This document shows positions 1-12,541 of a DNA stretch of 12,670 nucleotides, piece by piece. The notes under the pieces are model-generated. The model was not told the origin of the DNA. It did no database searches and saw only the letters and a list, made by a program, of their open reading frames with translations. A program made the translations under genes and the position numbers. Every line of letters starts with the position of its first letter. The stretch's first letter is position 1. This stretch comes from Candidatus Undinarchaeota archaeon (lineage in GTDB: Archaea; Undinarchaeota; Undinarchaeia; Undinarchaeales; UBA543), in the NCBI GenBank assembly GCA_964567575.1, contig CAZMMZ010000013.1, positions 1-12,670 of the forward strand. The letters run 5' to 3'.

Positions 1-4
1 AAAC

Positions 5-412
5 ATGACTAATAAAAAAGCACAAGGAATTTCTATAAACATGATAGTAGTCATCGCCATTGCAGTCTTTGTAGTGTTCTTAGTTCTTGGATTTGCAAGC
101 GGTGGATGGAACTATTTCGCAGGAGCATTCGGCTCTGCCACAAAAGGAACTGGCGGATATGAAGCAGCTAAAATAAAATGTGACACTTGGTGCACAAGTT
201 ATCAAGGCGGCGGTTGTCCAGATAGTGGATATCTATACAACAGAATGTACAATGAACAAGGAGCAACAGCAGACACTGATGGAAATGGTGCACTAGACGA
301 TTGTTTCAGTTGTTTAGGAGATACGGTATCATGTGATGGAGAAAAGATACCAAATGTTTTAGGTGGAAAATGTGATTGTGCGGCCGGCGTTGACGCTACA
401 GATCCCGTATAA
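5..412 (+). CDS. Type IV pilin-like protein (class III signal peptide), candidate major pilin, with an 8-Cys head and a DxDxNG loop
   Basis: MTNKKA|QGISINMIVVIAIAVFVVFLVLGF: basic leader, KKAQ motif and hydrophobic helix. The head has C59-x3-C63, DTDGNGALDD (aa 90-99) and a C-terminal CDC. Confidence 0.8.
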   Translation: MTNKKAQGISINMIVVIAIAVFVVFLVLGFASGGWNYFAGAFGSATKGTGGYEAAKIKCDTWCTSYQGGGCPDSGYLYNRMYNEQGATADTDGNGALDDCFSCLGDTVSCDGEKIPNVLGGKCDCAAGVDATDPV

Positions 413-429
413 AACATTCATAAAATAAA

Positions 430-801
430 ATGCTAAACATCAAAGGAATTTCGCTTAGTATAACTGCAATTGTAATTATAGCAGTTGCAGTAGTTGTCTT
501 AGTTACTGTGCTCGGATTCTTTTTAGGAGGATTCCAAAGTAGTGGAAGCACGTTGAGAGATGTTAGTTCTGCAGCTGATGTAAGTGCAAAAACAGATGTT
601 ACTTCTGGAATGGGAAATATAGGAGATCTTTGGAAAGGTGGAGCAGGCGACGATTGTATTGCTGCTGAAGATTGTAGGAGTAATATGGCTTGCACTGGAT
701 CACCACGAGTATGCAAAGGACTGCCTGGATATAAATGCAAGATTCCTGCTGATTGTAGTAGTGATGAATGTGGTTCTGATTATGCAAACAAATGTGATTA
801 A
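430..801 (+). CDS. Type IV pilin-like protein with two small 4-Cys knot repeats at the C-terminus
   Basis: MLNIKG|ISLSITAIVIIAVAVVVLVTVLGFF. The tail contains CIAAEDCRSNMACTGSPRVC and CKIPADCSSDECGSDYANKC. Paralog of 802..1077. Confidence 0.8.
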   Translation: MLNIKGISLSITAIVIIAVAVVVLVTVLGFFLGGFQSSGSTLRDVSSAADVSAKTDVTSGMGNIGDLWKGGAGDDCIAAEDCRSNMACTGSPRVCKGLPGYKCKIPADCSSDECGSDYANKCD

Positions 802-1077
802 ATGAAATCTAAAAAAGGAATGGAGATGAGTATAAGCACAATTGTTGTGCTTGTCATTGCAGTTGTTGTTCTTGTTGCAGTTGTTAGTTATTTCTTAAGT
901 GGTTTTGCTGAAACAGGAAGCACTGTAAGAGATGTTTCAAAAAGCGCTGATGTCGATTCTGGTTGGGAAGATAAAATGAGTGATGCACTTGATGTATTTT
1001 CAGACAAGTGTGTAGAGAATGGAGATTGTGATACTGGAGAAGAGTGTAAAGAAGAACGGTGTGAGGAAATAGAGTAA
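802..1077 (+). CDS. Type IV pilin-like protein with one small 4-Cys knot
   Basis: MKSKKG|MEMSISTIVVLVIAVVVLVAVVSYF. The tail is CVENGDCDTGEECKEERC. The ATG directly abuts the previous TAA (TAAATG). Confidence 0.82.
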   Translation: MKSKKGMEMSISTIVVLVIAVVVLVAVVSYFLSGFAETGSTVRDVSKSADVDSGWEDKMSDALDVFSDKCVENGDCDTGEECKEERCEEIE

Positions 1078-1085
1078 TTTTTATT
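1078..1085 (+). terminator. Possible archaeal oligo-T terminator after the three small pilins
   Basis: TTTTTATT immediately follows the stop codon at 1075-1077. It is a short T-tract only. Confidence 0.3.
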
Positions 1086-1090
1086 GAACA

Positions 1091-1107
1091 AAAGAACGTT
1101 TATATAT
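1091..1107 (+). promoter_or_regulatory. Archaeal BRE + TATA box for the giant gene (probably a leaderless transcript)
   Basis: A purine-rich AAAGAAC precedes TTTATATA (1099-1106), which ends about 25 nt upstream of ATG 1132. There is no Shine-Dalgarno motif before that ATG. Confidence 0.6.
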
Positions 1108-1131
1108 TGTATTAATAATATACCTAATAGC

Positions 1132-4100
1132 ATGAGAAACAAAAAAGCTCAAGGCGGAGTTGCAATGCGACCTATTATTATAGGAATTATGTTGGTTATT
1201 GTTTTATTAATCGTTGGTGGATATTTTTTAACTCAATTTAGTGCATCAGCAGAGAAAACTGAAAAAGCGCAAGAAGCAACTGTAGATGAAGAAACAACAC
1301 AAGAATTTATTGGAAAAATAGAAACATCAACTAAGAAACTTGAACCAATTCTTCATGGGTGGTGTTGTAATGAGGTTGGGTGGGAAGCACTCGAAAGCGC
1401 TTCTTTTGATGCAACACATCACGCAGCTGAAGAAGGAATTCAGGAAAACTGTATTACAGATCAAAGTAAAAGAACTTGTGAGCAGAGATGTGTTGAAGCT
1501 GGTTTTGGAACAGGAACAGAAATCGGTGCAAATGGAATAGCAGGAACTTGTAATAAAAATAATTATTGCCAGTGTTCTGGATGGACATCTGCAACAACTG
1601 GATTTAGCCAAGCATTTATGGTTGACAAATGGTGCTGTGAAGAATACAATGAATTTGGAACATGGATACCATATTATCTTAGAGATAAAGAAGCTACAAA
1701 ACACCAAGCAGTTGATGAAGGAAAGTACCAAGACAAATGCGCTTGCACAGGATATTCTTGTATGACAAAATGCAGAACAGAAGGATTTTTAGGTGGGATT
1801 GAAGTTGTAAAAAAACCAAGAGAACTTGTTTCAACATATTATTGTTCAGAAGAAGCAGAATGGACAGAAGATGAAGATTTGTCAGTTGTTGGAACACGTT
1901 GTTTAGAGGAAGGTGCTCTTAAATGCGAACAGAAATGTGAAGAAATAGGACTTGCAGGAGAATTCATAACAGATGCAGAAGGAACTAATGATAATCCTAT
2001 AAGATGTGAATGTACTAAAGAAACGAATGAGAATGTTGGAGATGGTCAGGAAGGAATTTGTGGAGAAGAAAGATTCTGCCAGTGTATTGGAGAACCAGAA
2101 CAATTCTGCTGTGACCCACCTGAAGAGGAAGATCTTCCAAAGATTATTGGTTGGAGATGCAAACCAGATCCAGAAGGAAATGAGAGATATCTTTTTGAAA
2201 GAATAAGTGGAACAGGAACAAAAGGATCCTTTAATGCTTTCAACAAAGTACTTATTGGAAATTGTTATCTTCCTGGACCAGTGTTAGAAGTTGTTGATGG
2301 AGAAAACAAATGCCAAGATGAAGAGGATGTTGGAAACAAAGTACAATGCATATCTACAGCACCAATTGATAACTGGCAATTATTCAGTCTTGATGATGCA
2401 ACGCTCCAACACCATGGTGTGGCAAAATACATAGACAAAACATGTACTGGAATCGAAGGTGCGCCAGCATTAACTTGTAAAGAAAAATGCAAAGCTGAAG
2501 GATATGATATTGGAACAGAGGAGGGTGCGGATAAAAAAGGAGAACCAGGACAATGCACACCAGCAAAAGTATGTAAATGTGAATTTAGAGATACACAACT
2601 TTTTGAGAATTATTGCGAAGTTGAAGATGAGGAGGATATGCTTGGAAAAACAGAATTTACTTGTTGTCTAACAGGTCCGCCAGAAGATGAAGATACAATA
2701 AGTGTTTGGCAATTTGGAAACTGGAAATCATTCCAAACTTGTGAATATCAACAAAGTTATGAATGTCTACAAGAAACGTGTGAAATCGCGTGTATAGACA
2801 AGTATGGAGCTGGAACAGGTGCCACAAAAGTTGGGGCAAAATGCAGTTGCGCAGTTAGGGAAGAAGTAGTATACACAGCAACACTTTATTGCAGTGCTGA
2901 ATTAAAATATGGAGAAAGTAAACAAGATTTCTTAGCTGCACCAGATGGAGATAAACTAGAAGTACTTGACAAAAAGAAAGCAGGAAACGAGGAATTTGAT
3001 TGGCAGAATTGGAAAAGCAAAGGAGGATCAAATATTAATGATGCTTGTTGGGATATAAGTTGTAAAGATGCTTGTGCTGAGGCTGAGATTGACATTGGAG
3101 CAGGGAACTTTTACAAAGACTTTGCAGAAGGGAAAGTTGGATTAGACAAAGAGAGTTGCGTATGCACGCGTCCTGTAATAGGTAACAAGGAAAGATATCT
3201 CTGCTGCAATTCTGGACCAGAAACACAAGGATCATGGTATTTGTCTTGTGAGGATGGATCAACAGGTGGAGCCTGTTGTAGTCAGAACGCAGTTTACGGA
3301 AGTTCTGACACACGCTTTGATGACTCAGTAAGAAGTTGTAGCAATGACGAATGCCTTTATGAAATTTGTGGGGATGGATATAGCGGATACACCGACGCTG
3401 GCTATTGTATTTGTAAAGAAGGAGAGTTGAAACAATGGTGGGAAGAATTTAACAACAAAGCTAATCTCACAATGGAATGTACTACTGAGTATGCTGAAGA
3501 AGATATGCTAGATGAGAGTGCGTGGGTTGTTGTAGGAGATAAGACTGAAAATCCAAACACTGCTGATGAAGATTTCTGTGCCAGATCAGATCAGGTAATA
3601 TATGATAAAAAATGTAACCTTGATGCGGATTGTTTTGGGAGATGGAGTTGTAATAGGAATGGAAAATGTGAGCGAAGATGCAGAAATGCAAATGAGTGTA
3701 CTGTAGAACCTTCTCTATTCCCATCAATTGATGAAGGAACTGCTTGTGAAGGTGGAAAGTGTGTAGTTAAGCAGAATTGTAACCAACATTGTAAAGATAA
3801 TGGGTGGGGTAGTGGAGAAATGATAGGATCTGGATTCACTGGACCTAATAAGAGACGCTGTGAGTGTAAGACACAGTTGCGCACATCCACATCTTACTGT
3901 TGTGAGGATGATGGAAGATGGAGTGGAGTAGATTGCAACTTCAAAGCGTATAACAAAGACCTTTCAGAGTACAACACACAATGCACTAATAACAAGTGCG
4001 AAGAATTCTGCACAGGGTTTGGAAGAGACCCTGGGAAAAATGAGTGGGATACTGGCTTTAGTGAGATTTCAGGATGCTGGCCAGAAGTTTATGATAATTA

Positions 4101-6804
4101 CAAAGAGTATGAATGCGTTTGTTATAATACAGAAGAATGGACAAATGGGTATGACCCTCCAGAGGACAAAGACTGTGATGGAACTACAGATAGAGTAGAC
4201 ATAGATGATTTGAATTATTGTTTAGAAGATGATGTGGACGGGGATGGAGTGCCTGAACATTTAGGAGGTGTCTGTCCGGTTTCTCAATATCGGGATGGAG
4301 GCGCATTAACACCTTGTAAAAAGACACACGAATTAGAAGATGATGAAGAAGAGCCTGCAGAGTATGATACAAATGATGATATTGTTGGAGAGATGTGCTA
4401 CTTCACTATTTTTGGTAATGATGATATTGAAACAGAGTTTACATATGAAAATTATAGAGGAGTCACAAACCTAACACTTGACAGATTCCCAACTGATCCA
4501 GAGGCGAGTCAGGACAGAGATTGGGATGGATGCCCAGATGAATGGAATCCAGGATATGAAAATGCTGGTGATTCTGGACTTGTTCTAGATAAAGATCCAA
4601 TGAGATTTGATAATAGTTGTGGTGGGGTTGAAGATAATGATTGGGATAATGATGGTGTTCCAAATGTAGATGACAAATTCTTTTACAATAGGTATGCAAG
4701 TGAGGATACTGATTTAGATGGGTGCCCAGACAGGTGGAATCCTGGATACGGTATTGGGAGTGATTGCAGAACATATGGGTGTATTGGAAGCAAGGTTTGC
4801 ATGAGGAATTTTGACAATACTGCTTATGTGTGCGCAAATGCAAAAGAGTATTACTGTAAAAGGAGCGCAACGTTCGCACATAAATGGACAACAAATAAGG
4901 ATGAGTCTGGTCAGTACAAGTATTCTGCTACACCAAGAGAGTGTAATGAGGCAGATGCTGGTGGAAATAATATTATTGGATGTCCGAATGGGTTAGCTGG
5001 TTGTGATTGTTCTGAGCTATGTGGTAATGATGATAATTGGAAGTTTGACAATAATGCATGCACGTGCTGGAGCAATGAACAGGCAATAACAGAACCTAAC
5101 ACTAAGCTAAAGCTCGACACAAGATCTAATGATGATAGCTTAGGTTGTAAAGAGTTTGCAGATCCGATAAATCAACAATGTAGTGGAGAATGGGATTATG
5201 TATTCTGCCAAGTTGGTGTAATAGAGCCGGAAATCACAGCCCTGTGTTGTGGTGACAATCCTGGATGGTGGGACACAGAAGCAAATTGGGAAAATGGAGA
5301 TACTTGCTCTGGAAACAAGGAAGAAAAATGGTGGAGAGGTTGTGGGAATCCAGCTTGTCCACAAGGTTCCTCACAAGTGCTGGGAGGTATTACATACAAC
5401 AGGTGTTTGAAGCCAGAAACTCCTATATATGAATGGGTTGAGAATGGAGCGTGTGAAGGTGGTGATCTTCAGAAATACGCACTAAGCGCGTCTGATGAAG
5501 AAGTTGGAGGATGTCAGGCATTGTGCGATGATACGTATGGAGAGAATATTCGCATTGCGAAAAAAGTGTTAGTAAATAGAGGGATGTATACAATAGTAAC
5601 TTGCGATTGTGAAAGACTGCCAGTGGGAGGAGTGCCTGAGCAGACACTATGGCTTTGCAATAGAACTCCACAAGATGATTACTGGCATTGGGAACGTATA
5701 GGATGGGATGGTGCGCAAGAGGGTAATATAGGAGCGAACATTTATGCTTCTGGAACCGGAGCTTGTAATGTTGACACTAACTTGTTACAGAGAGGTGATT
5801 TAGGATGTGAAGGAGACGTGTTATGTCCAGATGGATGGACATATACGTGCACAGGTGGAAGAAACCTTGTGAGTTGCTGTCCAACAGATCACACAAACAT
5901 TTGCGGGTGTATTCCACCAGCAGGACAGATACTACAAGATGATTTTGAAACCAGCAAGGAGGATTGGAGTGTTGCATATTCTCCTATGATTATGAGTGGA
6001 GGAAGAGATCCGCAGCCTATTCCAGAATGCAACAAGAACGACTTTGAATGGGATGAGATTGAACTTAAGTCAGGAGCTCACTCGTATTATTTGAAAGCTG
6101 GGAAAAATATTAATATTTTTGCTGGAGGCATTGTTGGGGCTAGAGACTGCAAGACATTCATTACCAAAACTTTTGAAGTAGATACTCCTGCTGGAAAAAC
6201 ACTCTCATGGTGGTACAAATCAGAACAAGGAACTAATGGTAAGAGGTTCTTTAATGTTTATGTAAATGGTAATAGTGTGTGGTCTGCACAAGTTGATCAG
6301 GTAGATGAATGGCAACAGGAGTCAATTGTCTTAGGTGGTGGCGTCACTTCCCCAGTAACTGTCAAACTCGAAGTGTTTTATGACGGAGCATGGAGTGCTT
6401 CTACAAGTGGTTGGTTTGACAAACTAGAAATAACGGAGGGAGGACAAGAAGAATTCGAGCTTCCAGAAATTGATTGCAGACAGAGCGCGTGCGGAAAGGG
6501 AATGGATTGTATTGAGGAGAATAATGCTTGGGTTTGTGCTGAGAACTATGAAATATACTTCTGCGGGGGCGGGGCTGGTTCTAGAAGATGGGATACAGAT
6601 GCTGATTGTCAGGCGCGGGATGGACAGGACTGTGAGGCTGTGTATTTCGGAGCATGTAATGCACCAAATTGTGATACCTATTGTACAAATACAGCAGGAT
6701 TCGTTAGAGGAGTGACATCAGGAACTCGTACAGGCAGAACTGGAGATAGGTACCAATGTAAATGTACTGACGACCAAGTATTCCGCGGAGGAAATTTAGG
6801 ATAG
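1132..6804 (+). CDS. Giant (1890 aa) Cys-rich modular pilin / putative pilus-borne adhesin
   Basis: MRNKKA|QGGVAMRPIIIGIMLVIVLLIVGGYF is a class III signal with the only hydrophobic helix in the protein. It has about 140 Cys by manual count, 12 C-x3(4)-C...C-x-C modules, TSP3-like repeats and a jelly-roll domain. Start moved from TTG 1084 to ATG 1132 because the prepilin leader begins there and the TATA box lies inside the extension. Confidence 0.85.
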   Translation: MRNKKAQGGVAMRPIIIGIMLVIVLLIVGGYFLTQFSASAEKTEKAQEATVDEETTQEFIGKIETSTKKLEPILHGWCCNEVGWEALESASFDATHHAAEEGIQENCITDQSKRTCEQRCVEAGFGTGTEIGANGIAGTCNKNNYCQCSGWTSATTGFSQAFMVDKWCCEEYNEFGTWIPYYLRDKEATKHQAVDEGKYQDKCACTGYSCMTKCRTEGFLGGIEVVKKPRELVSTYYCSEEAEWTEDEDLSVVGTRCLEEGALKCEQKCEEIGLAGEFITDAEGTNDNPIRCECTKETNENVGDGQEGICGEERFCQCIGEPEQFCCDPPEEEDLPKIIGWRCKPDPEGNERYLFERISGTGTKGSFNAFNKVLIGNCYLPGPVLEVVDGENKCQDEEDVGNKVQCISTAPIDNWQLFSLDDATLQHHGVAKYIDKTCTGIEGAPALTCKEKCKAEGYDIGTEEGADKKGEPGQCTPAKVCKCEFRDTQLFENYCEVEDEEDMLGKTEFTCCLTGPPEDEDTISVWQFGNWKSFQTCEYQQSYECLQETCEIACIDKYGAGTGATKVGAKCSCAVREEVVYTATLYCSAELKYGESKQDFLAAPDGDKLEVLDKKKAGNEEFDWQNWKSKGGSNINDACWDISCKDACAEAEIDIGAGNFYKDFAEGKVGLDKESCVCTRPVIGNKERYLCCNSGPETQGSWYLSCEDGSTGGACCSQNAVYGSSDTRFDDSVRSCSNDECLYEICGDGYSGYTDAGYCICKEGELKQWWEEFNNKANLTMECTTEYAEEDMLDESAWVVVGDKTENPNTADEDFCARSDQVIYDKKCNLDADCFGRWSCNRNGKCERRCRNANECTVEPSLFPSIDEGTACEGGKCVVKQNCNQHCKDNGWGSGEMIGSGFTGPNKRRCECKTQLRTSTSYCCEDDGRWSGVDCNFKAYNKDLSEYNTQCTNNKCEEFCTGFGRDPGKNEWDTGFSEISGCWPEVYDNYKEYECVCYNTEEWTNGYDPPEDKDCDGTTDRVDIDDLNYCLEDDVDGDGVPEHLGGVCPVSQYRDGGALTPCKKTHELEDDEEEPAEYDTNDDIVGEMCYFTIFGNDDIETEFTYENYRGVTNLTLDRFPTDPEASQDRDWDGCPDEWNPGYENAGDSGLVLDKDPMRFDNSCGGVEDNDWDNDGVPNVDDKFFYNRYASEDTDLDGCPDRWNPGYGIGSDCRTYGCIGSKVCMRNFDNTAYVCANAKEYYCKRSATFAHKWTTNKDESGQYKYSATPRECNEADAGGNNIIGCPNGLAGCDCSELCGNDDNWKFDNNACTCWSNEQAITEPNTKLKLDTRSNDDSLGCKEFADPINQQCSGEWDYVFCQVGVIEPEITALCCGDNPGWWDTEANWENGDTCSGNKEEKWWRGCGNPACPQGSSQVLGGITYNRCLKPETPIYEWVENGACEGGDLQKYALSASDEEVGGCQALCDDTYGENIRIAKKVLVNRGMYTIVTCDCERLPVGGVPEQTLWLCNRTPQDDYWHWERIGWDGAQEGNIGANIYASGTGACNVDTNLLQRGDLGCEGDVLCPDGWTYTCTGGRNLVSCCPTDHTNICGCIPPAGQILQDDFETSKEDWSVAYSPMIMSGGRDPQPIPECNKNDFEWDEIELKSGAHSYYLKAGKNINIFAGGIVGARDCKTFITKTFEVDTPAGKTLSWWYKSEQGTNGKRFFNVYVNGNSVWSAQVDQVDEWQQESIVLGGGVTSPVTVKLEVFYDGAWSASTSGWFDKLEITEGGQEEFELPEIDCRQSACGKGMDCIEENNAWVCAENYEIYFCGGGAGSRRWDTDADCQARDGQDCEAVYFGACNAPNCDTYCTNTAGFVRGVTSGTRTGRTGDRYQCKCTDDQVFRGGNLG
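4165..4749 (+). repeat. Thrombospondin type 3-like Ca-binding (DxDxDG) repeats
   Basis: DKDCDGTTD, DVDGDGVPE, DRFPTDPEASQDRDWDGCPDEWNPGY, DWDNDGVPNVDD and ASEDTDLDGCPDRWNPGY. Confidence 0.75.
5932..6438 (+). other. Jelly-roll beta-sandwich domain (MAM/CBM/cleaved-adhesin-like) in the giant pilin
   Basis: DDFE..W, SGAHSYYLKAG, ITKTF, LSWWYK, FNVYVNG..VW, WQQ..I.L and GWFDKLEI form the motif series typical of galactose-binding-like or MAM-like folds. Confidence 0.6.
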
Positions 6805-6820
6805 AAAATGATAATATACT

Positions 6821-6827
6821 AGGAGGA
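6821..6827 (+). promoter_or_regulatory. Shine-Dalgarno-like site for 6840..7079
   Basis: AGGAGGA lies 12 nt upstream of ATG 6840, a somewhat long spacing. Confidence 0.5.
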
Positions 6828-6839
6828 TAAATTAAGAAT

Positions 6840-7079
6840 ATGAAAAATCAAAAAGGAATGGAAATGGCTCTCGGAACAGTCGTAACTGTAGTGATTCTTT
6901 TAATTGTATTGATTGTTATTGGCTCCTACTTCCTCGGCGGAGTTACAAAAAGCGGAGAGAAAGTTGAGCAAATTAGTGATGAACTTGTTGAAGGAGATGA
7001 AGAGGGAAAAGGTGGAGTTAGTGATATTGTTGGTGGACTACGAGGACTAGTAAGCGGATTTAAACGAGACAAAAGTTAA
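6840..7079 (+). CDS. Small type IV pilin-like protein (about 73 aa mature, no Cys)
   Basis: MKNQKG|MEMALGTVVTVVILLIVLIVIGSYFLGG, with an upstream AGGAGG. Confidence 0.82.
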   Translation: MKNQKGMEMALGTVVTVVILLIVLIVIGSYFLGGVTKSGEKVEQISDELVEGDEEGKGGVSDIVGGLRGLVSGFKRDKS

Positions 7080-7098
7080 GTAAGCATAGAAGAATAGA

Positions 7099-7107
7099 TT
7101 TTTAAAG
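7099..7107 (+). promoter_or_regulatory. Possible TATA-like element for the downstream minor-pilin operon
   Basis: TTTTTAAAG follows a purine-rich AGAAGAATAG and lies about 22-30 nt upstream of ATG 7129. It could instead be a T-tract terminator of the previous gene. Confidence 0.3.
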
Positions 7108-7119
7108 CTATGAAACGTT

Positions 7120-7347
7120 ATGAATATCATGAGCCTTGAAAGTATAAAACAAACTATTAACAACATTCGTGGTGCTGAGATGGCACTCTCAACAGTTATC
7201 ACGATTGTATTATTGCTTATTGTTCTTATTGTTGCTGCTAGTTTCTTCATAGGCGGATCAGAAGGTGTACTTAATCCAATCATGGGTGTTGGAGATGCAG
7301 CAGCAGGTCAAGCAGGCGAGGCACAGAATTTAAATTGGCTTCAATGA
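7120..7347 (+). CDS. Very small type IV pilin-like protein (about 57 aa mature); alternative start at 7129
   Basis: ...INNIRG|AEMALSTVITIVLLLIVLIVAASFFIGG. It matches 6840..7079 at 19 of the first 28 mature residues. Confidence 0.78.
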   Translation: MNIMSLESIKQTINNIRGAEMALSTVITIVLLLIVLIVAASFFIGGSEGVLNPIMGVGDAAAGQAGEAQNLNWLQ

Positions 7348-7823
7348 AAAAAGCACAAGCAACAGGATTTATGGTATTAATAATAGGACTAATGTTGCTT
7401 GTATCAATTGTATTTGTTACATATGAATCAGTTACAGGAATGAATATAGCTGAAATCATGACTGCAAATGTAGCACAAGATATGACAACTGGAGTGAATA
7501 TTATAATGATGTCACCTCGCGGTGCAAGTGGAATAGTAAACTGTCCAAAAGGATATGATGTAGAAATAAACAATGGAAGAGTGACAGTTCATATTGACAA
7601 ATTATATAGAAAAGCAACAGTAACTGCATATTATGTTGTGCCTGACGGAGTTGAACTTCCTCAAGATGTTTATGCTGTTTGTACTGGTGATAATTTTTTA
7701 AGAGTTGAAAAATGGCAAGATGAAGATGGAAAACAACATCTTTCAATAGCAGAAACAGATGACCTTGGATACACTGCAATGCCACAAGAAGAACCACCAG
7801 AGCAGGAGGAAATCGAGATATGA
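7344..7823 (+). CDS. Minor pilin-like protein (159 aa)
   Basis: MKKA|QATGFMVLIIGLMLLVSIVFV. The ATG at 7344 forms an ATGA overlap with the previous stop and is preferred over TTG 7335. Confidence 0.78.
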   Translation: MKKAQATGFMVLIIGLMLLVSIVFVTYESVTGMNIAEIMTANVAQDMTTGVNIIMMSPRGASGIVNCPKGYDVEINNGRVTVHIDKLYRKATVTAYYVVPDGVELPQDVYAVCTGDNFLRVEKWQDEDGKQHLSIAETDDLGYTAMPQEEPPEQEEIEI

Positions 7824-9844
7824 GAAATAGAAAAGCTATGGTGGGGTGGCCAATAATTTTCATGATGACTGTAGCTGTGGTATCAATGACCCTTGTTGCA
7901 ATGCATACAACTCGAGTGAATCAGATAAACATTGTTACAACAACTGCAACAGAAGATACAGCAAACCTTCTTGTTAATACTCTTATGAATCTGCCAGAAT
8001 GTTTCGCATATGAAGAAAATGGACGAGCAGTTGGAGGTGTTATTGATGAAAATAAATTGAAAGAAATGGCTTCAAGGGCTTCGTGTGTCGGGATTGGACC
8101 AATTGTTTGGAGTATGGAAGTTGAACAGATTATACGTGAAACACGACAAGAGAAAGTATATTGTTGGAATGAACTAATGTATGCAACTGGAGAATTCAGT
8201 CCGCCGCCTTCTAATCCTTTTGACAGGCGCGCTAAAAGATCATTAGAAGAAGCCTTAGGATTTGAACAACTAGGAATGTATTGTTGCGCAGAAAAAAGAA
8301 AAGATGAAGTGGAAAGAGAGTATGATGTAAATGACATACTTTTATCTATTGACGCGATGTGTATCGAATATAAGGATTATCCAGAAATGTGGGAGATTGA
8401 AGATGAAATAAAAGATAAGTGTGACGCCGCTTGTATAGATTTGGGATATGAAACAGGGAAAAGTGACCTAGTTATAGGAAAACCAGGATTGGATGAGAAT
8501 GTAGAAAAAAACTACAACTGTGATTGTAAAACAGAAGGAACTGAATTTACAATGGGTTACAAAGAAACAATCAAACAAGGAGATTTGATGTTTTATTGTT
8601 GTCAAATAGATGGCTCATTGAAAAAATGGTCATTGACTCCATGTTGGGCGCATGAAGAATCGGATTGCAGTAAATCGTGCAATCACGTGTGCAAAGGTAT
8701 TGGATATTTAGAATCTGACATGGTAGGAAATGAAGAAGGAACAGCTGCAAATCGATATAAATGTAAGTGCACGGAAAATATTTTCGGTGCAATAAATCCA
8801 GTGGACGATCCTGTACTTGATAAACCATTAATTATCAAAGAAAAGAATGTTCTTGTGAAAAATGATGAAGGAGTATACAATGCAAAAATGAAAGTGGGAA
8901 TTTCAGCACGAACTCCTCAAATAACACTTACAAACGATGAGTATAATGAATTTGATGTCACGTTTATGTCTGATGATTACGCAAACAAATGGGTTGCAGA
9001 AGCGATTATAATAAACATGACAGATCATTCTGAGGGGTGTGGAGAATTAACAACTGAAAATATATGGCTTGAAGTTCTAGGAGCAGCATATGTAAGCCCA
9101 ACATGGAAAGGGTATAACTATGATGAAGGGGATGATTTTGAAACTAATGATTGGGAATTTAGAGAAGAAGGAACCTGCAATCAGAATCAATATGTATGGG
9201 ATACCGGCACATCTTCATCACCAAGTCACTCTTTTTATTTGAAAGCTGGTTGTGATAACGGGTGTGCAAAAAACTGTTTGTCAAGAATAACTAAAACATT
9301 TTTTGTGGAGGATGTAAATGCTATGAAACAATTCACATGGAAATATAAAATTGAAAAGGGAAACAGTGAAAATACCAAGTTCCGAGTTTATGTTAATGAT
9401 GAAGTTGTTTGGTGGCAAACAAACAGCGAAACAAGTGTTGACTGGCAAGAAACAAGAGCAACAATACCACCAATGCAATATGAAGTTATAAATGGAACTG
9501 GAACAGCAACTCCAAAAGGAGAAACAGAACCTTTGGTTGACATTGTATTTGAAGTTGAATATGATGCTACAACCGGAGATAATACTTCAAGCTGGTGGAT
9601 TGATGATTTAGAATTTATTGAAACCGCATTTGAACAAAGAGGGGATAAATATAATTATAATGTCTTTGATCACAATACAAAACTTAAATTTAAAATCAGG
9701 AACAGCGCTAACAAAAATTTAGAATTTGGCGGAAAGGAGAAAGGTTGTGGAATAAAATTCTTACTATATCCTGATATTAATAATCAAAATCACCCTTCGA
9801 GTAGAGAGGTTTATGAAAACGTTTTGATAAAGGAGTTGCCATGA
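7820..9844 (+). CDS. Modular minor pilin (674 aa) with two defensin-like Cys modules and a jelly-roll domain
   Basis: MRNRKA|MVGWPIIFMMTVAVVSMTLV, ATGA overlap and AGGAGG at 7804-7809. It contains CDAAC...CDC and CNHVC...CKC modules, and aa 438-601 are homologous to the giant pilin's beta-sandwich. Confidence 0.8.
   Translation: MRNRKAMVGWPIIFMMTVAVVSMTLVAMHTTRVNQINIVTTTATEDTANLLVNTLMNLPECFAYEENGRAVGGVIDENKLKEMASRASCVGIGPIVWSMEVEQIIRETRQEKVYCWNELMYATGEFSPPPSNPFDRRAKRSLEEALGFEQLGMYCCAEKRKDEVEREYDVNDILLSIDAMCIEYKDYPEMWEIEDEIKDKCDAACIDLGYETGKSDLVIGKPGLDENVEKNYNCDCKTEGTEFTMGYKETIKQGDLMFYCCQIDGSLKKWSLTPCWAHEESDCSKSCNHVCKGIGYLESDMVGNEEGTAANRYKCKCTENIFGAINPVDDPVLDKPLIIKEKNVLVKNDEGVYNAKMKVGISARTPQITLTNDEYNEFDVTFMSDDYANKWVAEAIIINMTDHSEGCGELTTENIWLEVLGAAYVSPTWKGYNYDEGDDFETNDWEFREEGTCNQNQYVWDTGTSSSPSHSFYLKAGCDNGCAKNCLSRITKTFFVEDVNAMKQFTWKYKIEKGNSENTKFRVYVNDEVVWWQTNSETSVDWQETRATIPPMQYEVINGTGTATPKGETEPLVDIVFEVEYDATTGDNTSSWWIDDLEFIETAFEQRGDKYNYNVFDHNTKLKFKIRNSANKNLEFGGKEKGCGIKFLLYPDINNQNHPSSREVYENVLIKELP
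9131..9622 (+). other. Second copy of the jelly-roll beta-sandwich domain
   Basis: DDFETNDW, CNQNQYVWD, SHSFYLKAG, ITKTF, FTWKYK, FRVYVND..VW, DWQE and WWIDDLEF are colinear with the motifs at 5932..6438. Confidence 0.7.
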
Positions 9845-11394
9845 ATAAAAAAGCACAAGTTAAAGTCGGATACATTATAGGTGTTTTAGTAATAACACTT
9901 TTTGCTGTAGCAATGGTAATGGGACCAGTAGCTGGAATACAAATTCAAGCTATTGAAGATCTTTTTGGTGGAGGAGAAAGCGTTATCGGAGGGAAGTATA
10001 TTGTTGAAATTCAAAGTAGGGAGGACACTGGATTTGATTTTGACGGACAAGGAGAACAAGAAGGAATAATGAAAAAAGGGAGCAGCAATGAAGATATAAT
10101 AGAATATAATTGCAATTATCCAGAAATGAGCGAATTTTTATTTTACAGAAAAAATCAAGAACATGACTCAGAATGGATAATGACAATATTTAATGGCGAA
10201 ATACTCGCACTTGCAGAAGATGAGTATGGAGATAGTTGTAATAGTTTTGGAAGTAAAAAATATGAAAAACAGGCAGGAACTCGAGTAAAAGCTGGGACAA
10301 AAACATGTGTTAAAACCAGCAATGGGCATGTAATAAAAATAAATTGGTTAACCCCAACGAAAATGGAATACTGGTTTGAAGAATTAAATTACGCATATTC
10401 TGCTGATGATATTGAACCAGGATATGTAACACTAGACAAATATTTACTAACTGTTCCAAAAGAACATTTTGTTTCAGATAAAATAGAAGGAGAAGGTGGA
10501 AATGTAAAATGGTATGGTTATGATTTCGACAAGCAGATGCCTACAAGCGGTGGAGAATATGAACTCGATAATTTAGAAGAAAGAAGCGGAATTGACATGT
10601 GGTATAATGAAGAGTATGGCCTGCTTTTTGATTCACAATGTGGAAAAGAAGGAAAATATGTTTGTTGTGAATCAAATGTTGGAGGTACGGCGTTTACTTG
10701 TGAATTTGATACTGAAGAAGCATGCCAGTTTAAATGTGAAAACCACTGCAATATCTTAGGACATGAAAATAATAAGCTTACATTTGATGCGGAAACAGGA
10801 AAATATACGTGCATATGTAGTACAAAAGGACGGCTTGCGTGGGAAGACTATACTCTTCTAAATGAAAAAATAAGTATTTGTGAGTTTGATAAAGAAGAAG
10901 ATTGTCAAGAACACTGCAAAAGTGATTGTGTTATGGCAGGATATGAAAAGGATAATCTGCAATGGAAAGAGAGTCAAGGAAAATATGTGTGTACCTGTAG
11001 TGAACACACCACAGGATGTCCAGCGTATATGTATCCTCACCCAGAATCTGCATGTGCTGAAGATTATGTTCAACGAATGGATTGTAAGGGACTAAATGAG
11101 GGTTGTGAGTATGATGAGGAAACACAAATTTGCACATGTCCAAACGGTTACAACTTTCAACGCTCTTTCTATATGGGAACCACAGATAACATAAATTGCA
11201 ATGAATTGCCTCCGATGTTTTATCACCCTAACTGGCAAGATTGGGGTGGGGGAAGCGGACAGCCAAGTGCATATTCGCCACCAGTGAATAAGAATGCGTA
11301 TTATTGCATAATCACAAATGAGAATCGGGTTGTAAAGGTTCAATGGAAGAGTAATCAAGGAGAGGGAGGTAAATTTGAATGGGAATACGACTAA
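9841..11394 (+). CDS. Modular minor pilin (517 aa) with a tandem Cys repeat and two copies of a beta-rich domain
   Basis: MNKKA|QVKVGYIIGVLVITLFAVAMVMG, ATGA overlap and AGGAG at 9831-9835. Confidence 0.8.
   Translation: MNKKAQVKVGYIIGVLVITLFAVAMVMGPVAGIQIQAIEDLFGGGESVIGGKYIVEIQSREDTGFDFDGQGEQEGIMKKGSSNEDIIEYNCNYPEMSEFLFYRKNQEHDSEWIMTIFNGEILALAEDEYGDSCNSFGSKKYEKQAGTRVKAGTKTCVKTSNGHVIKINWLTPTKMEYWFEELNYAYSADDIEPGYVTLDKYLLTVPKEHFVSDKIEGEGGNVKWYGYDFDKQMPTSGGEYELDNLEERSGIDMWYNEEYGLLFDSQCGKEGKYVCCESNVGGTAFTCEFDTEEACQFKCENHCNILGHENNKLTFDAETGKYTCICSTKGRLAWEDYTLLNEKISICEFDKEEDCQEHCKSDCVMAGYEKDNLQWKESQGKYVCTCSEHTTGCPAYMYPHPESACAEDYVQRMDCKGLNEGCEYDEETQICTCPNGYNFQRSFYMGTTDNINCNELPPMFYHPNWQDWGGGSGQPSAYSPPVNKNAYYCIITNENRVVKVQWKSNQGEGGKFEWEYD
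10699..10998 (+). repeat. Tandem 60-aa (180-nt period) Cys module duplication
   Basis: CEFDTEEACQFKCENHCNILGHENNKLTFDAETGKYTCIC versus CEFDKEEDCQEHCKSDCVMAGYEKDNLQWKESQGKYVCTC. Similarity is also visible in the DNA (tgtgaatttgatactgaagaag / tgtgagtttgataaagaagaag). Confidence 0.85.
11365..11370 (+). promoter_or_regulatory. Shine-Dalgarno site for 11379..12008
   Basis: GGAGGT lies 8 nt upstream of ATG 11379, inside the previous gene. Confidence 0.65.
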
Positions 11395-12008
11395 AGAATA
11401 AAAAAGCAGCAATTGAAATTGGAGCATTAATCCTAGGAATAGTTGTTATAACAATTGCATCTGTGGTTTCAACAACTTCATTATTTTTTATGCAAGGAAA
11501 CGACGAAGCTGGAATAAATAAATTATATATTGTGTCAGAAGGGAATACATATGTGGATAATACTTTAGAAGCGCTTTTGAGATATGAAACTGGTGGAAAA
11601 ACAACAAGAGAACATTTGAAAAGCAACACCCCAGTTAATGAAGTTTTAGGTTATATGAAAAACAGTCTGGATACGCAGGAGATTAGAAGAAAATACCAGA
11701 TAGATATTGTTAAAGACGGATCAACAGATGTGATTGGACAAGCAGATCCTTTAAGATCTTACACCTCTGAAATTGAAATTTTCCAGGAAAATGAAAAGAA
11801 AATAAAAGTAAAACTCATGGTAGGAGTTGAACCTATTTTTATGTGCGTTCAAATTGCAGATATTGGCAGTGTCTGTCCTAATAATTATTGGAAAACACAT
11901 ATGTGGAACACTTTAGAAAGCTGTGAGGAAACTAGAGATGATACTAGCGAGCCAGTTGGGTCACTTTGCAGTGATTATTCATGCACTTGCAGGAAGGTGG
12001 CAAATTGA
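11379..12008 (+). CDS. Minor pilin-like protein (209 aa) with a 6-Cys C-terminal tail
   Basis: MGIRLKNKKA|AIEIGALILGIVVITIASVV, with a strong SD. The tail ends ...CSDYSCTCRK. Confidence 0.78.
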   Translation: MGIRLKNKKAAIEIGALILGIVVITIASVVSTTSLFFMQGNDEAGINKLYIVSEGNTYVDNTLEALLRYETGGKTTREHLKSNTPVNEVLGYMKNSLDTQEIRRKYQIDIVKDGSTDVIGQADPLRSYTSEIEIFQENEKKIKVKLMVGVEPIFMCVQIADIGSVCPNNYWKTHMWNTLESCEETRDDTSEPVGSLCSDYSCTCRKVAN

Positions 12009-12541
12009 GAACAGTTAGAAATCGGAAAGCAATGGTGGAAATGATTGGATTACTTTTAATTTTATTTTCAGTAACAATAGGAGGAGTTGTGTTCTCAAAG
12101 TACATTGCAGCATCTGTTGCAGGAAGAAGTGCAGTATATCAATACTCTTACAGAATTCATAAAGATCATATTGGAGCTGAGAATTTTTATACAGATATAG
12201 TTGAGGATCAAGTAAGAAATTATCTTATACTAACTGGATATGATTTGAATAATTTTTGTCCGAATGATGTTGATACAGCAGCACTGGAAACATATATGGA
12301 AACACGTTTAGATATGTTTCTAGAAAGTATAAAATACAAATACAAAACCCATAAATTAAAGAAAATGGAAATATCAAAAATTGAAAAAAATGCAAACGAA
12401 CTCTCAGTTACAATCAAAGCAGTGGAACCAATTAAAATCACATATGATGAAATAAGCCATGTGATGACAAGCATTTCAACTCCAGAATATATTGAAACTT
12501 TTTCTGTGTCTGGAATTGGATGTGTAGCTGAAGAAAGATAA
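12005..12541 (+). CDS. Minor pilin-like protein (178 aa, TTG start)
   Basis: (M)RTVRNRKA|MVEMIGLLLILFSVTIGGVVF. TTG 12005 overlaps the previous TGA as TTGA, with AGGTGG about 4 nt upstream. The ORF-track start at 11981 is less likely. Confidence 0.72.
   Translation: MRTVRNRKAMVEMIGLLLILFSVTIGGVVFSKYIAASVAGRSAVYQYSYRIHKDHIGAENFYTDIVEDQVRNYLILTGYDLNNFCPNDVDTAALETYMETRLDMFLESIKYKYKTHKLKKMEISKIEKNANELSVTIKAVEPIKITYDEISHVMTSISTPEYIETFSVSGIGCVAEER

Follow-up and report, generated by a model that had tools for sequence, protein, structure and literature searches.

Adhesion modules carried by pilins are already known from bacteria, where a census of modular pilins found mostly two modules per protein and a largest case of 860 amino acids (aa), and argued for a position at the filament tip; in Streptococcus sanguinis, PilB bears a vWA module and PilC a lectin module (PMC8179133). 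Adhesin-like proteins with a class III (prepilin) signal are likewise known from archaeal loci, where proteins with galactose-binding domains and large adhesin-like proteins have been described (PMC13705601). Type IV filaments (T4F) are reported to occur widely across most phyla of Archaea, the exceptions being DPANN (Nanobdellati) and the Asgard archaea, and the Epd-like "system 1" of Nanobdellati/DPANN comprises one ATPase, two platform genes and many pilins, with pilin loci lying apart from the machinery (PMC13705601). Here, we describe a gene from Undinarchaeota, a phylum characterized as probably host-dependent (PMC7414124), that encodes an unusually large Cys-rich protein of 1890 aa. The gene occupies positions 1132-6804 of the forward strand (ATG 1132 to stop 6804) of contig CAZMMZ010000013.1, the full 12,670 nucleotides (nt) of which constitute the window analyzed. 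On balance, the protein, referred to below as the giant, is probably a modular surface adhesin with a class III signal, carried by a helix of pilin type and routed through an Epd-like filament system.

Composition and domain architecture

The window is the entire contig C13 of a metagenome-assembled genome (MAG) of 745 kb in 18 contigs, 82% complete, which carries an archaeal 16S fragment on contig C2. When the 394 open reading frames (ORFs) of at least 250 aa in this assembly are compared, the giant is the longest (the second longest has 1266 aa) and ranks first in Cys content, with 140 Cys residues (7.41%) against a median of 0.92%; 7% of all Cys in these ORFs sit in this one protein, whose gene takes up 0.76% of the DNA of the ~0.75-Mb genome. 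Gly (10.4%), Trp (2.75%) and Asp plus Glu (18.2%) are abundant and the isoelectric point (pI) is 4.3, in agreement with the sequence-only reading of this DNA, which had described a protein of 1890 aa, acidic and Trp/Gly-rich, with about 140 Cys (~7%). The single N-terminal helix and missing C-terminal anchor that it had also reported are borne out by a hydropathy and sequence check of all 1890 aa, in which the only hydrophobic segment spans residues 13-35 (Kyte-Doolittle maximum 3.0 at residues 15-33; next best anywhere 1.19) and no C-terminal transmembrane (TM) segment or sorting signal was found. A role for the Cys residues in metal binding, in place of disulfides, was considered and set aside, the protein being extracytoplasmic by prediction and its His content merely 0.7%.

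About 11 divergent copies of a module of ~75 aa, with the framework [YW]-C-C .. W .. C .. C-x3-C .. G[YFW] .. G .. C-x-C and pairwise identities of 20-29%, recur along the protein. The combination CxxxC-(8-45)-CxC occurs nine times against 0.44 expected, a count reached by none of 2000 shuffles. Hidden Markov model (HMM) hits, alignment and this pattern excess delimit a first array (1357-4128, forward strand like all features of the window described here), with modules at approximately residues 76-152, 163-320, 402-486, 506-576, 617-681, 840-915 and 921-999 and other Cys-rich stretches in between. A second group (4831-5616), recognized by HMM in a region represented in a single assembly, comprises a weak copy at approximately residues 1234-1315 and another at 1423-1495, together with Cys/Trp-rich stretches, and a terminal module, also found by HMM, occupies residues 1802-1880 (6535-6771). 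The terminal module is preceded by a small four-Cys unit, and the same pair is seen at residues 1211-1315. The second module of the first array (window 1618-2091; WCC...SCMTKC...) appears not to close before a complete inner module (YYC..CEQKC..CEC) has ended, and an external HMM matches both parts of this interval separately, which fits a nested arrangement.

Two other giants with class III signals carry the same kind of module, namely a protein encoded by a MAG of the same genus (the G001 giant) and P0014, from a metagenome contig. An HMM built only from six modules of these two proteins places the giant as the best ORF of its genome (full E 8.6e-8, domain iE 1e-5 to 4e-4), and pairwise BLASTP gives E-values of 8e-6 and 4e-7. 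Because the external HMM and the pairwise alignments both match, the Cys modules of the three giants are, by sequence comparison, homologous domains. Leave-one-out searches inside the giant were weak (three of nine modules at E<0.01), an HMM of four modules from neighbouring genes alone did not find the giant, and the high scores of the first module HMM were circular.

Two further domain types are set into this chain. Residues 1005-1210 (4144-4761) consist of units of the form DxDxDGxPDxWNxGY that BLASTP aligns with the repeats of two large proteins, P0002 (several units aligned) and P0003, the latter from the marine bacterium Aliikangiella maris (E 1e-10 to 3e-7), and longer units of the form DxFPxDxxASxDxDxDGxPDxWNxGY are common to the giant and both bacterial proteins. 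The precomputed Pfam list of P0002 includes PF18884, which we take to be a bacterial TSP3 repeat family; Pfam gave no match on the region of the giant itself. By homology, this region is assigned to TSP3-type repeats, and calcium binding is predicted. Giant calcium-binding adhesins of marine bacteria are the nearest known counterpart of this region. In P0002 and P0003 the repeats stand beside other Pfam domains (P0003 is named as an Ig-like domain-containing protein), whereas in the giant they interrupt, over a short length, a chain of Cys modules that follows a pilin-like helix.

The second domain, at residues 1595-1790 (5914-6501), is a predicted β-sandwich jelly-roll of the MAM/CBM type that is 38% identical to residues 430-617 of a 674-aa neighbour (window 9107-9670; E 1e-11). 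Its AlphaFold2 (AF2) model contains eight strands (predicted local distance difference test, pLDDT, 58.5; predicted template modelling score, pTM, 0.60), and Foldseek returned 77 matches in the PDB at E<=1e-3 with probability 1.0 and E-values down to 2e-5, led by CBM61, CBM4, CBM70, and MAM; CBM16 and CBM6 are also among the domains that the model resembles. In VIA comparisons, Z-scores of 9.0 to 7.6 were obtained over 125-149 residues, the best being to MAM (Z 9.0, 127 residues aligned, root-mean-square deviation 3.4), and ESM Atlas pointed to CBM_4_9, Cleaved_Adhesin, and MAM. Sequence searches with the domain found no Pfam match, no homologues outside the window and no named CBM or MAM sequence family; membership of the MAM/CBM β-sandwich fold class is supported by the modelled structure.

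The view that the protein is made mostly of small disulfide modules holds in part: recognizable modules account for ~45% of the length, but the rest consists of other Cys-rich stretches, the ~200-aa TSP3-type region and the ~180-aa jelly-roll. The beads-on-a-string layout proposed with it stands, as a chain of small Cys modules plus adhesin-type domains (TSP3 repeats and MAM/CBM-like jelly-roll).

The fold of the Cys module itself was approached by AF2 on an alignment of 13 modules, which gave a model (pLDDT 60, pTM 0.52) with an N-terminal hairpin, a helix over the CxxxC motif and strands ending in CxC. Placement of CxxxC in a predicted helix and of CxC in a predicted strand would be shared with the cysteine-stabilized αβ (CSαβ) defensins and scorpion toxins. 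Modules 1 and 4 contain the full six-Cys pattern C..CxxxC..GxC-x5-CxC, which we take to be that of CSαβ proteins, and the CxxxC/CxC pair is present in 9-10 modules. Foldseek with the module model found no significant match; 17 of the 19 weak ones were CSαβ defensins or scorpion toxins, all at E>=2.7, and Pfam Gamma-thionin touched one of the 13 modules at E 0.015. A wide VIA search with the model gave no Z-score above 2.3, the module profile found nothing among PDB sequences, and ESM Atlas returned no usable match for the module core. A CSαβ-like core is reasonably suggested by the model and the Cys spacing. Compared with CSαβ defensins and scorpion toxins, however, the unit of the giant is repeated, acidic and embedded in a giant protein, and has an extra N-terminal CC/W hairpin and a long loop from helix to strand. 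We put forward only tentatively, as an idea more apt to fail than to hold, that the ~75-aa module has a true CSαβ fold and serves serially as disulfide-locked structural or binding beads on subunits of DPANN type IV filaments, and not as a toxin. We know of no archaeal CSαβ members; if true, the proposal would extend the range of the fold and reveal a new way to build a very long pilus-borne adhesin.

The same Cys framework in modules 1 and 4, the weak Foldseek list made up almost entirely of defensins and scorpion toxins, and the Gamma-thionin match are also what could be cited for a polyprotein of defensin-like (CSαβ) toxin units, displayed or released to perforate or block host-cell channels. 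We regard this as very improbable, given that the modules are acidic rather than cationic (pI 4.3), that there are no polyprotein-type protease sites or spacers, that no search establishes the fold (E>1, Z<=2.3), and that the modules are set among adhesin-type domains.

Prepilin-type signal, machinery and proposed display

The N-terminus of the giant reads MRNKKA followed by QGGVAMRPIIIGIMLVIVLLIVGGYF. Residues 1-6 form a predicted class III leader (1132-1149; cut placed between A6 and Q7) that is common to neighbouring pilin-like ORFs; the hydrophobic helix of residues 7-35 (1150-1236; Kyte-Doolittle 3.0) is the sole predicted membrane or filament anchor, and it is followed by an acidic, Cys-free linker of residues 36-75 (1237-1356). 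A class III signal consists of a short basic leader with Gly or Ala as its last residue and, directly behind it at the extreme N-terminus, ~20 hydrophobic residues; the giant shows this layout, with Ala and ~22 hydrophobic residues. The leader pattern [KR]-[KR]-[AG]-[QM] is also found on 10 other ORFs of the window and on seven ORFs at a filament machinery locus on contig C3 (17 in total). Near-identical leaders occur on gene 1 of the window (MTNKKAQ), the 517-aa gene (MNKKAQ) and the 159-aa gene (MKKAQ), and those of the small ORFs on C3 read NKKAQ, NNKAQ, NQKAQ, and SRKAQ. These comparisons support an N-terminus of class III (prepilin) type, as across the pilin loci of this genome, with leader cleavage predicted.

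The locus on C3 is the only type IV filament machinery detected in the genome. It holds the only T2SSE-type ATPase found (695 aa; T2SSE at C3:42843-43499) and the only T2SSF platform genes, two adjacent ones (C3:44248-45406) that make up a split platform that is flanked, like the ATPase, by leader-bearing ORFs, while a Peptidase_A24 (prepilin peptidase) gene lies at C7:22673-23026. The split platform and the many pilins fit "system 1" of the archaeal survey (PMC13705601).

In the favoured reading, the gene of the giant would have its own promoter and head an operon of pilin-like genes, and the preprotein would be inserted by its N-terminal helix before the A24 prepilin peptidase removes MRNKKA, as the shared leader implies. 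The 1850-aa ectodomain would then fold outside the cell with up to 70 disulfides, perhaps helped by a membrane-anchored protein with two DsbA/GILT-like domains, while the helix would dock in the Epd-like system 1 machinery (the ATPase and two platform genes on C3). The giant is too bulky for regular packing along a filament to be plausible, which would leave it the starting point or the tip, or else a short stub; that it sits at the tip in particular is possible, though we consider it doubtful. The ~75-aa disulfide modules and calcium-loaded TSP3 repeats would make up a stalk that is stiff and resists proteases. Close to the far end of the protein, the jelly-roll would be the likely binding head, whose ligand on a partner cell or a particle is probably a glycan. 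Individual Cys modules may be mere spacers rather than binding units. In support of this reading, the jelly-roll is re-used in the next large pilin (674 aa), and the modules are homologous to those of two other giants with class III signals.

A helper for oxidative folding is to be expected for a protein with 140 extracellular Cys residues. The candidate is a 581-aa protein (C11:4813-6558) in which a Cys-rich, zinc-ribbon-like N-terminus is combined with a single TM helix and two domains resembling DsbA/GILT/Thioredoxin_4, and which by its domain content could be an extracellular thiol-disulfide catalyst for Cys-rich surface proteins; its motif SQCPYGT contains a single Cys and not CxxC. VKOR was not found in the genome.

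Several observations weigh against the favoured reading. Among the pilin and class III models of Pfam and NCBIfam, none matched the N-terminus of the giant at E<=1; short models of this kind frequently overlook divergent archaeal pilins. After the predicted cut, Gly-Gly at +2/+3 and Arg at +7 are unusual. No globular pilin domain is recognizable behind the helix, where the linker of residues 36-75 gives way to Cys modules. An ASA motif followed by Glu (residues 38-41) is a possible signal peptidase I site that could permit cleavage and release. Both AF2 models, of the module and of the jelly-roll, are of low confidence (pLDDT ~59), and 1.56 kb in the middle of the gene (nt 4151-5713, residues 1007-1528) are supported by one assembly alone.

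The absence of a globular pilin domain, with the helix running straight into the linker, and a bulk that speaks against regular packing could also mean that the class III leader serves for processing and anchoring only, and that the protein is held by its helix at the membrane or surface layer, alone or in a short bindosome-like assembly, and never on an extended pilus. Precedents exist in proteins with class III signals that are not filament subunits, among functionalized T4F and in the Sulfolobus bindosome (PMC13705601). Nevertheless, the genes around it include short pilin-like ones, possibly helix-only, as is typical of a filament locus, and the major pilins of Epd/Tad type also do without a globular domain (PMC13705601), so its absence is not decisive. 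We judge display at the cell surface without a pilus to be rather unlikely, if the most serious of the alternatives. The ASA site bears on a different possibility, namely that the hydrophobic stretch is a long Sec-type signal peptide cut after ASA (residue 40), leaving a free 1850-aa protein that coats the cell or diffuses away. The AxA-Glu motif lies 3-5 residues past the hydrophobic stretch and aligns with ATA-E in the G001 giant; P0014, however, lacks AxA at that place, a stretch of ~22 residues is by our own assessment long for the hydrophobic region of a Sec signal, and the MRNKKAQ leader is of the kind borne by the pilin genes next to the ATPase. Secretion of a free protein is in our view improbable. 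Display through a pilin-type helix handled by the filament system remains the reading that we prefer.

Assembly support, locus and relatives

Two contigs of an independent Joint Genome Institute (JGI) metagenome assembly, Ga0187827_10032006 (L028) and Ga0187827_10031079 (L029), cover window positions 1-4150 and 5714-10285. Over nt 1132-4150 and 5714-6804, amounting to 72% of the ORF, the giant gene shows zero differences between the assemblies. Outside it, small pilin gene 1 is only 87% identical, gene 2 has indels at its 3' end, and the gene for the 674-aa protein has a 54-nt insertion; from this divergence the JGI contigs are considered to derive from a related yet distinct population. The possibility of an assembly chimera, raised with the sequence-only reading, is thereby countered for the exactly matching 72% but not for nt 4151-5713. 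The JGI contigs break at the start of the TSP3 region (4150) and just before the last Cys-rich stretch (5714), which could mean strain variation, such that the middle 1.56 kb may be a strain-variable cassette.

These breaks, the short contig (just 12.7 kb) and a GC content of 0.38-0.43 against 0.35 for the genome could be taken to indicate an artefact, either a chimera across the middle of the gene or a misbinned contig. Against this, 5.7 kb of AT-rich DNA pass without a stop in frame, which at 38-43% GC is not attributable to chance, and the same module types and composition lie on either side of the gap. DNA repeats in the ORF do not exceed ~40 nt in length (63-74% identity), which makes mis-assembly through repeats unlikely. 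Furthermore, the leader motif matches that of C3, which bears core genes, and the same-genus MAG has a neighbouring giant. We therefore give an artefact very little credence.

The in-frame 54-nt insertion in the 674-aa gene of the JGI sister strain (L029:2629-2682, between window positions 8341 and 8342) is 100% identical to the reverse complement of C3:46195-46248, a segment that takes in the ribosome-binding site of a pilin gene and the first part of its coding region, where the leader is encoded. A fold check ruled out a hairpin; the insertion could be templated or could be an assembly artefact.

The window contains eleven consecutive forward-strand ORFs, every one with a leader and ~20 hydrophobic residues, of which the giant is the fourth. 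Three small prepilin-like genes with Cys-rich tails (135, 123, and 91 aa; 5-1077) precede it, identified by leader and helix, and seven prepilin-like genes (6840-12541) follow, encoding proteins of 79, ~56-75, 159, 674, 517, 209, and ~180 aa. The first two of these (79 and ~56-75 aa) are short, possibly helix-only pilins, and the 674-aa and 517-aa proteins carry two Cys modules apiece. In the first small pilin (window 5-412, 135 aa), a CxxxC ... CxC pair encloses a TSP3-like DTDGNGALDD loop, giving the appearance of a one-module miniature of the giant.

A TATA-like box, TTTATATA (1099-1106), lies 25 nt 5' of ATG 1132 and is a candidate promoter element for a leaderless or near-leaderless transcript. 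It is the sole match to TTTAWATA in the window, where 2.1 are expected, so the count is not above chance; its position, not its count, is suggestive of a promoter for the giant gene. An alternative start upstream, TTG 1084, would add 16 residues, and ATG 1132 is preferred because the TATA-like box falls inside that extension. Downstream genes have Shine-Dalgarno-like sites or starts overlapping preceding stops, and these overlaps, together with the location of the TATA-like box in one of the few intergenic gaps, suggest that the giant gene heads an operon of pilin-like genes. A terminator scan found none 3' of the giant gene, and tRNA and Rfam scans of the window gave no match.

No orthologue was found when the giant was used as query against 60 related genomes. 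A word-index search of 5.8 billion clustered proteins at similar length yielded only TSP3-repeat proteins and no orthologue, and for the jelly-roll, searched in the same way among shorter proteins, the sole match was a fragment of the giant itself. No match to the jelly-roll profile turned up in the 17 genomes of the phylum; phmmer of the giant against PDB sequences gave no match, and Pfam and NCBIfam gave nothing above noise on the giant and its neighbours. The module profile, searched against 1.84 billion representatives, matched nothing but proteins of the window itself and one spurious phosphatase from an animal; as P0014 was missed too, this result does not prove absence.

The homologue search called for by the sequence-only reading has thus produced no orthologue but, instead, paralogous giants of other architecture. 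The same-genus MAG (CAZWSR01; G001) encodes on a 6.3-kb contig (G001:C22) a protein that has a class III signal, three modules and 4.5% Cys and is at least 1282 aa long, and P0014, of 2144 aa and 5.6% Cys, is encoded on a 443-kb JGI metagenome contig and is 35% identical to the G001 giant; a scan of genome contigs with P0014 as query gave no match. These proteins share with the giant the type of leader and helix and the homologous CC..CxxxC..CxC modules, but differ in a Cys-poor, β-rich first 500-600 aa, a second type of Cys module and the lower Cys content. The TSP3 region and jelly-roll were not detected in G001 or the other genomes of the phylum that were searched. At its 5' end, the sister-strain contig L028 carries the C-terminus of a G001-type giant (37 of 38 residues identical), then a gene for a 54-aa pilin, then gene 1 of the window (L028:1-805 / window 1-412). 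As the 3' end of a second giant lies just upstream, the full locus has at least two giants; the MAG contig probably broke at the first small pilin gene, which is variable and looks hypervariable. The giant thus appears to be a member of a small family of paralogous giants and not a lone oddity. Other window genes have no clear counterparts even inside the genus; the locus is fast-evolving, as expected for surface proteins.

Elsewhere in the genome, a 1004-aa surface protein with 4.3% Cys (C11:10210-13224) contains the second Cys-module type (..L.EWYC..) in common with the G001 giant (E 1.6e-4), a motif that can also be read, by eye and unscored, in P0014; the lineage has several private Cys-module types. 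Two membrane-anchored ORFs on C8 (41356-42417, reverse strand, and 45610-46053, forward strand) have Cys contents of 6.8% and 9.5%.

Comparison with modular pilins and system 1 loci

A life attached to other cells is assumed for DPANN archaea, and the giant is a concrete candidate for an attachment device of Undinarchaeota and a handle for finding the partner. What is new here is a protein whose length is about double the census maximum for bacteria, encoded in an Undinarchaeota genome of ~0.75 Mb on a helix-only carrier, and a Cys-module family seen only in three giants and two neighbouring proteins. The possible defensin-like fold of this family would be of evolutionary interest.

In its setting, the giant resembles the archaeal system 1 loci, with two platform genes, one ATPase, many pilins and pilin loci remote from the machinery, although no protein of its size or Cys content is described there (PMC13705601). 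With modular type IV pilins it shares a class III leader and helix as carrier, adhesion-type modules behind them and a locus with other pilins, and a lectin-like β-sandwich is present in the giant as it is in PilC. It differs in its archaeal-type leader, in the lack of a visible globular pilin module and in the ~20 domains of its 1890 aa, which are mostly modules of an undescribed Cys-rich family. Position +5 after the predicted cut is Ala, whereas the bacterial prepilin motif has a conserved E5. That the protein is far larger than known modular pilins, as first claimed from its sequence, is clear from the 860-aa maximum of the census. The definition of a modular pilin used there (Raynaud et al. 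2021) requires a helix with a globular β-sheet domain and the IPR012902 leader motif, neither of which describes the giant, while its extra modules, which should not be pilus-specific and should have predicted binding functions, are matched by the jelly-roll and the TSP3-type repeats (PMC8179133). The giant would thus work like a modular pilin yet falls outside the published definition, stretching the modular pilin idea to about twice the largest reported size and into the Archaea.

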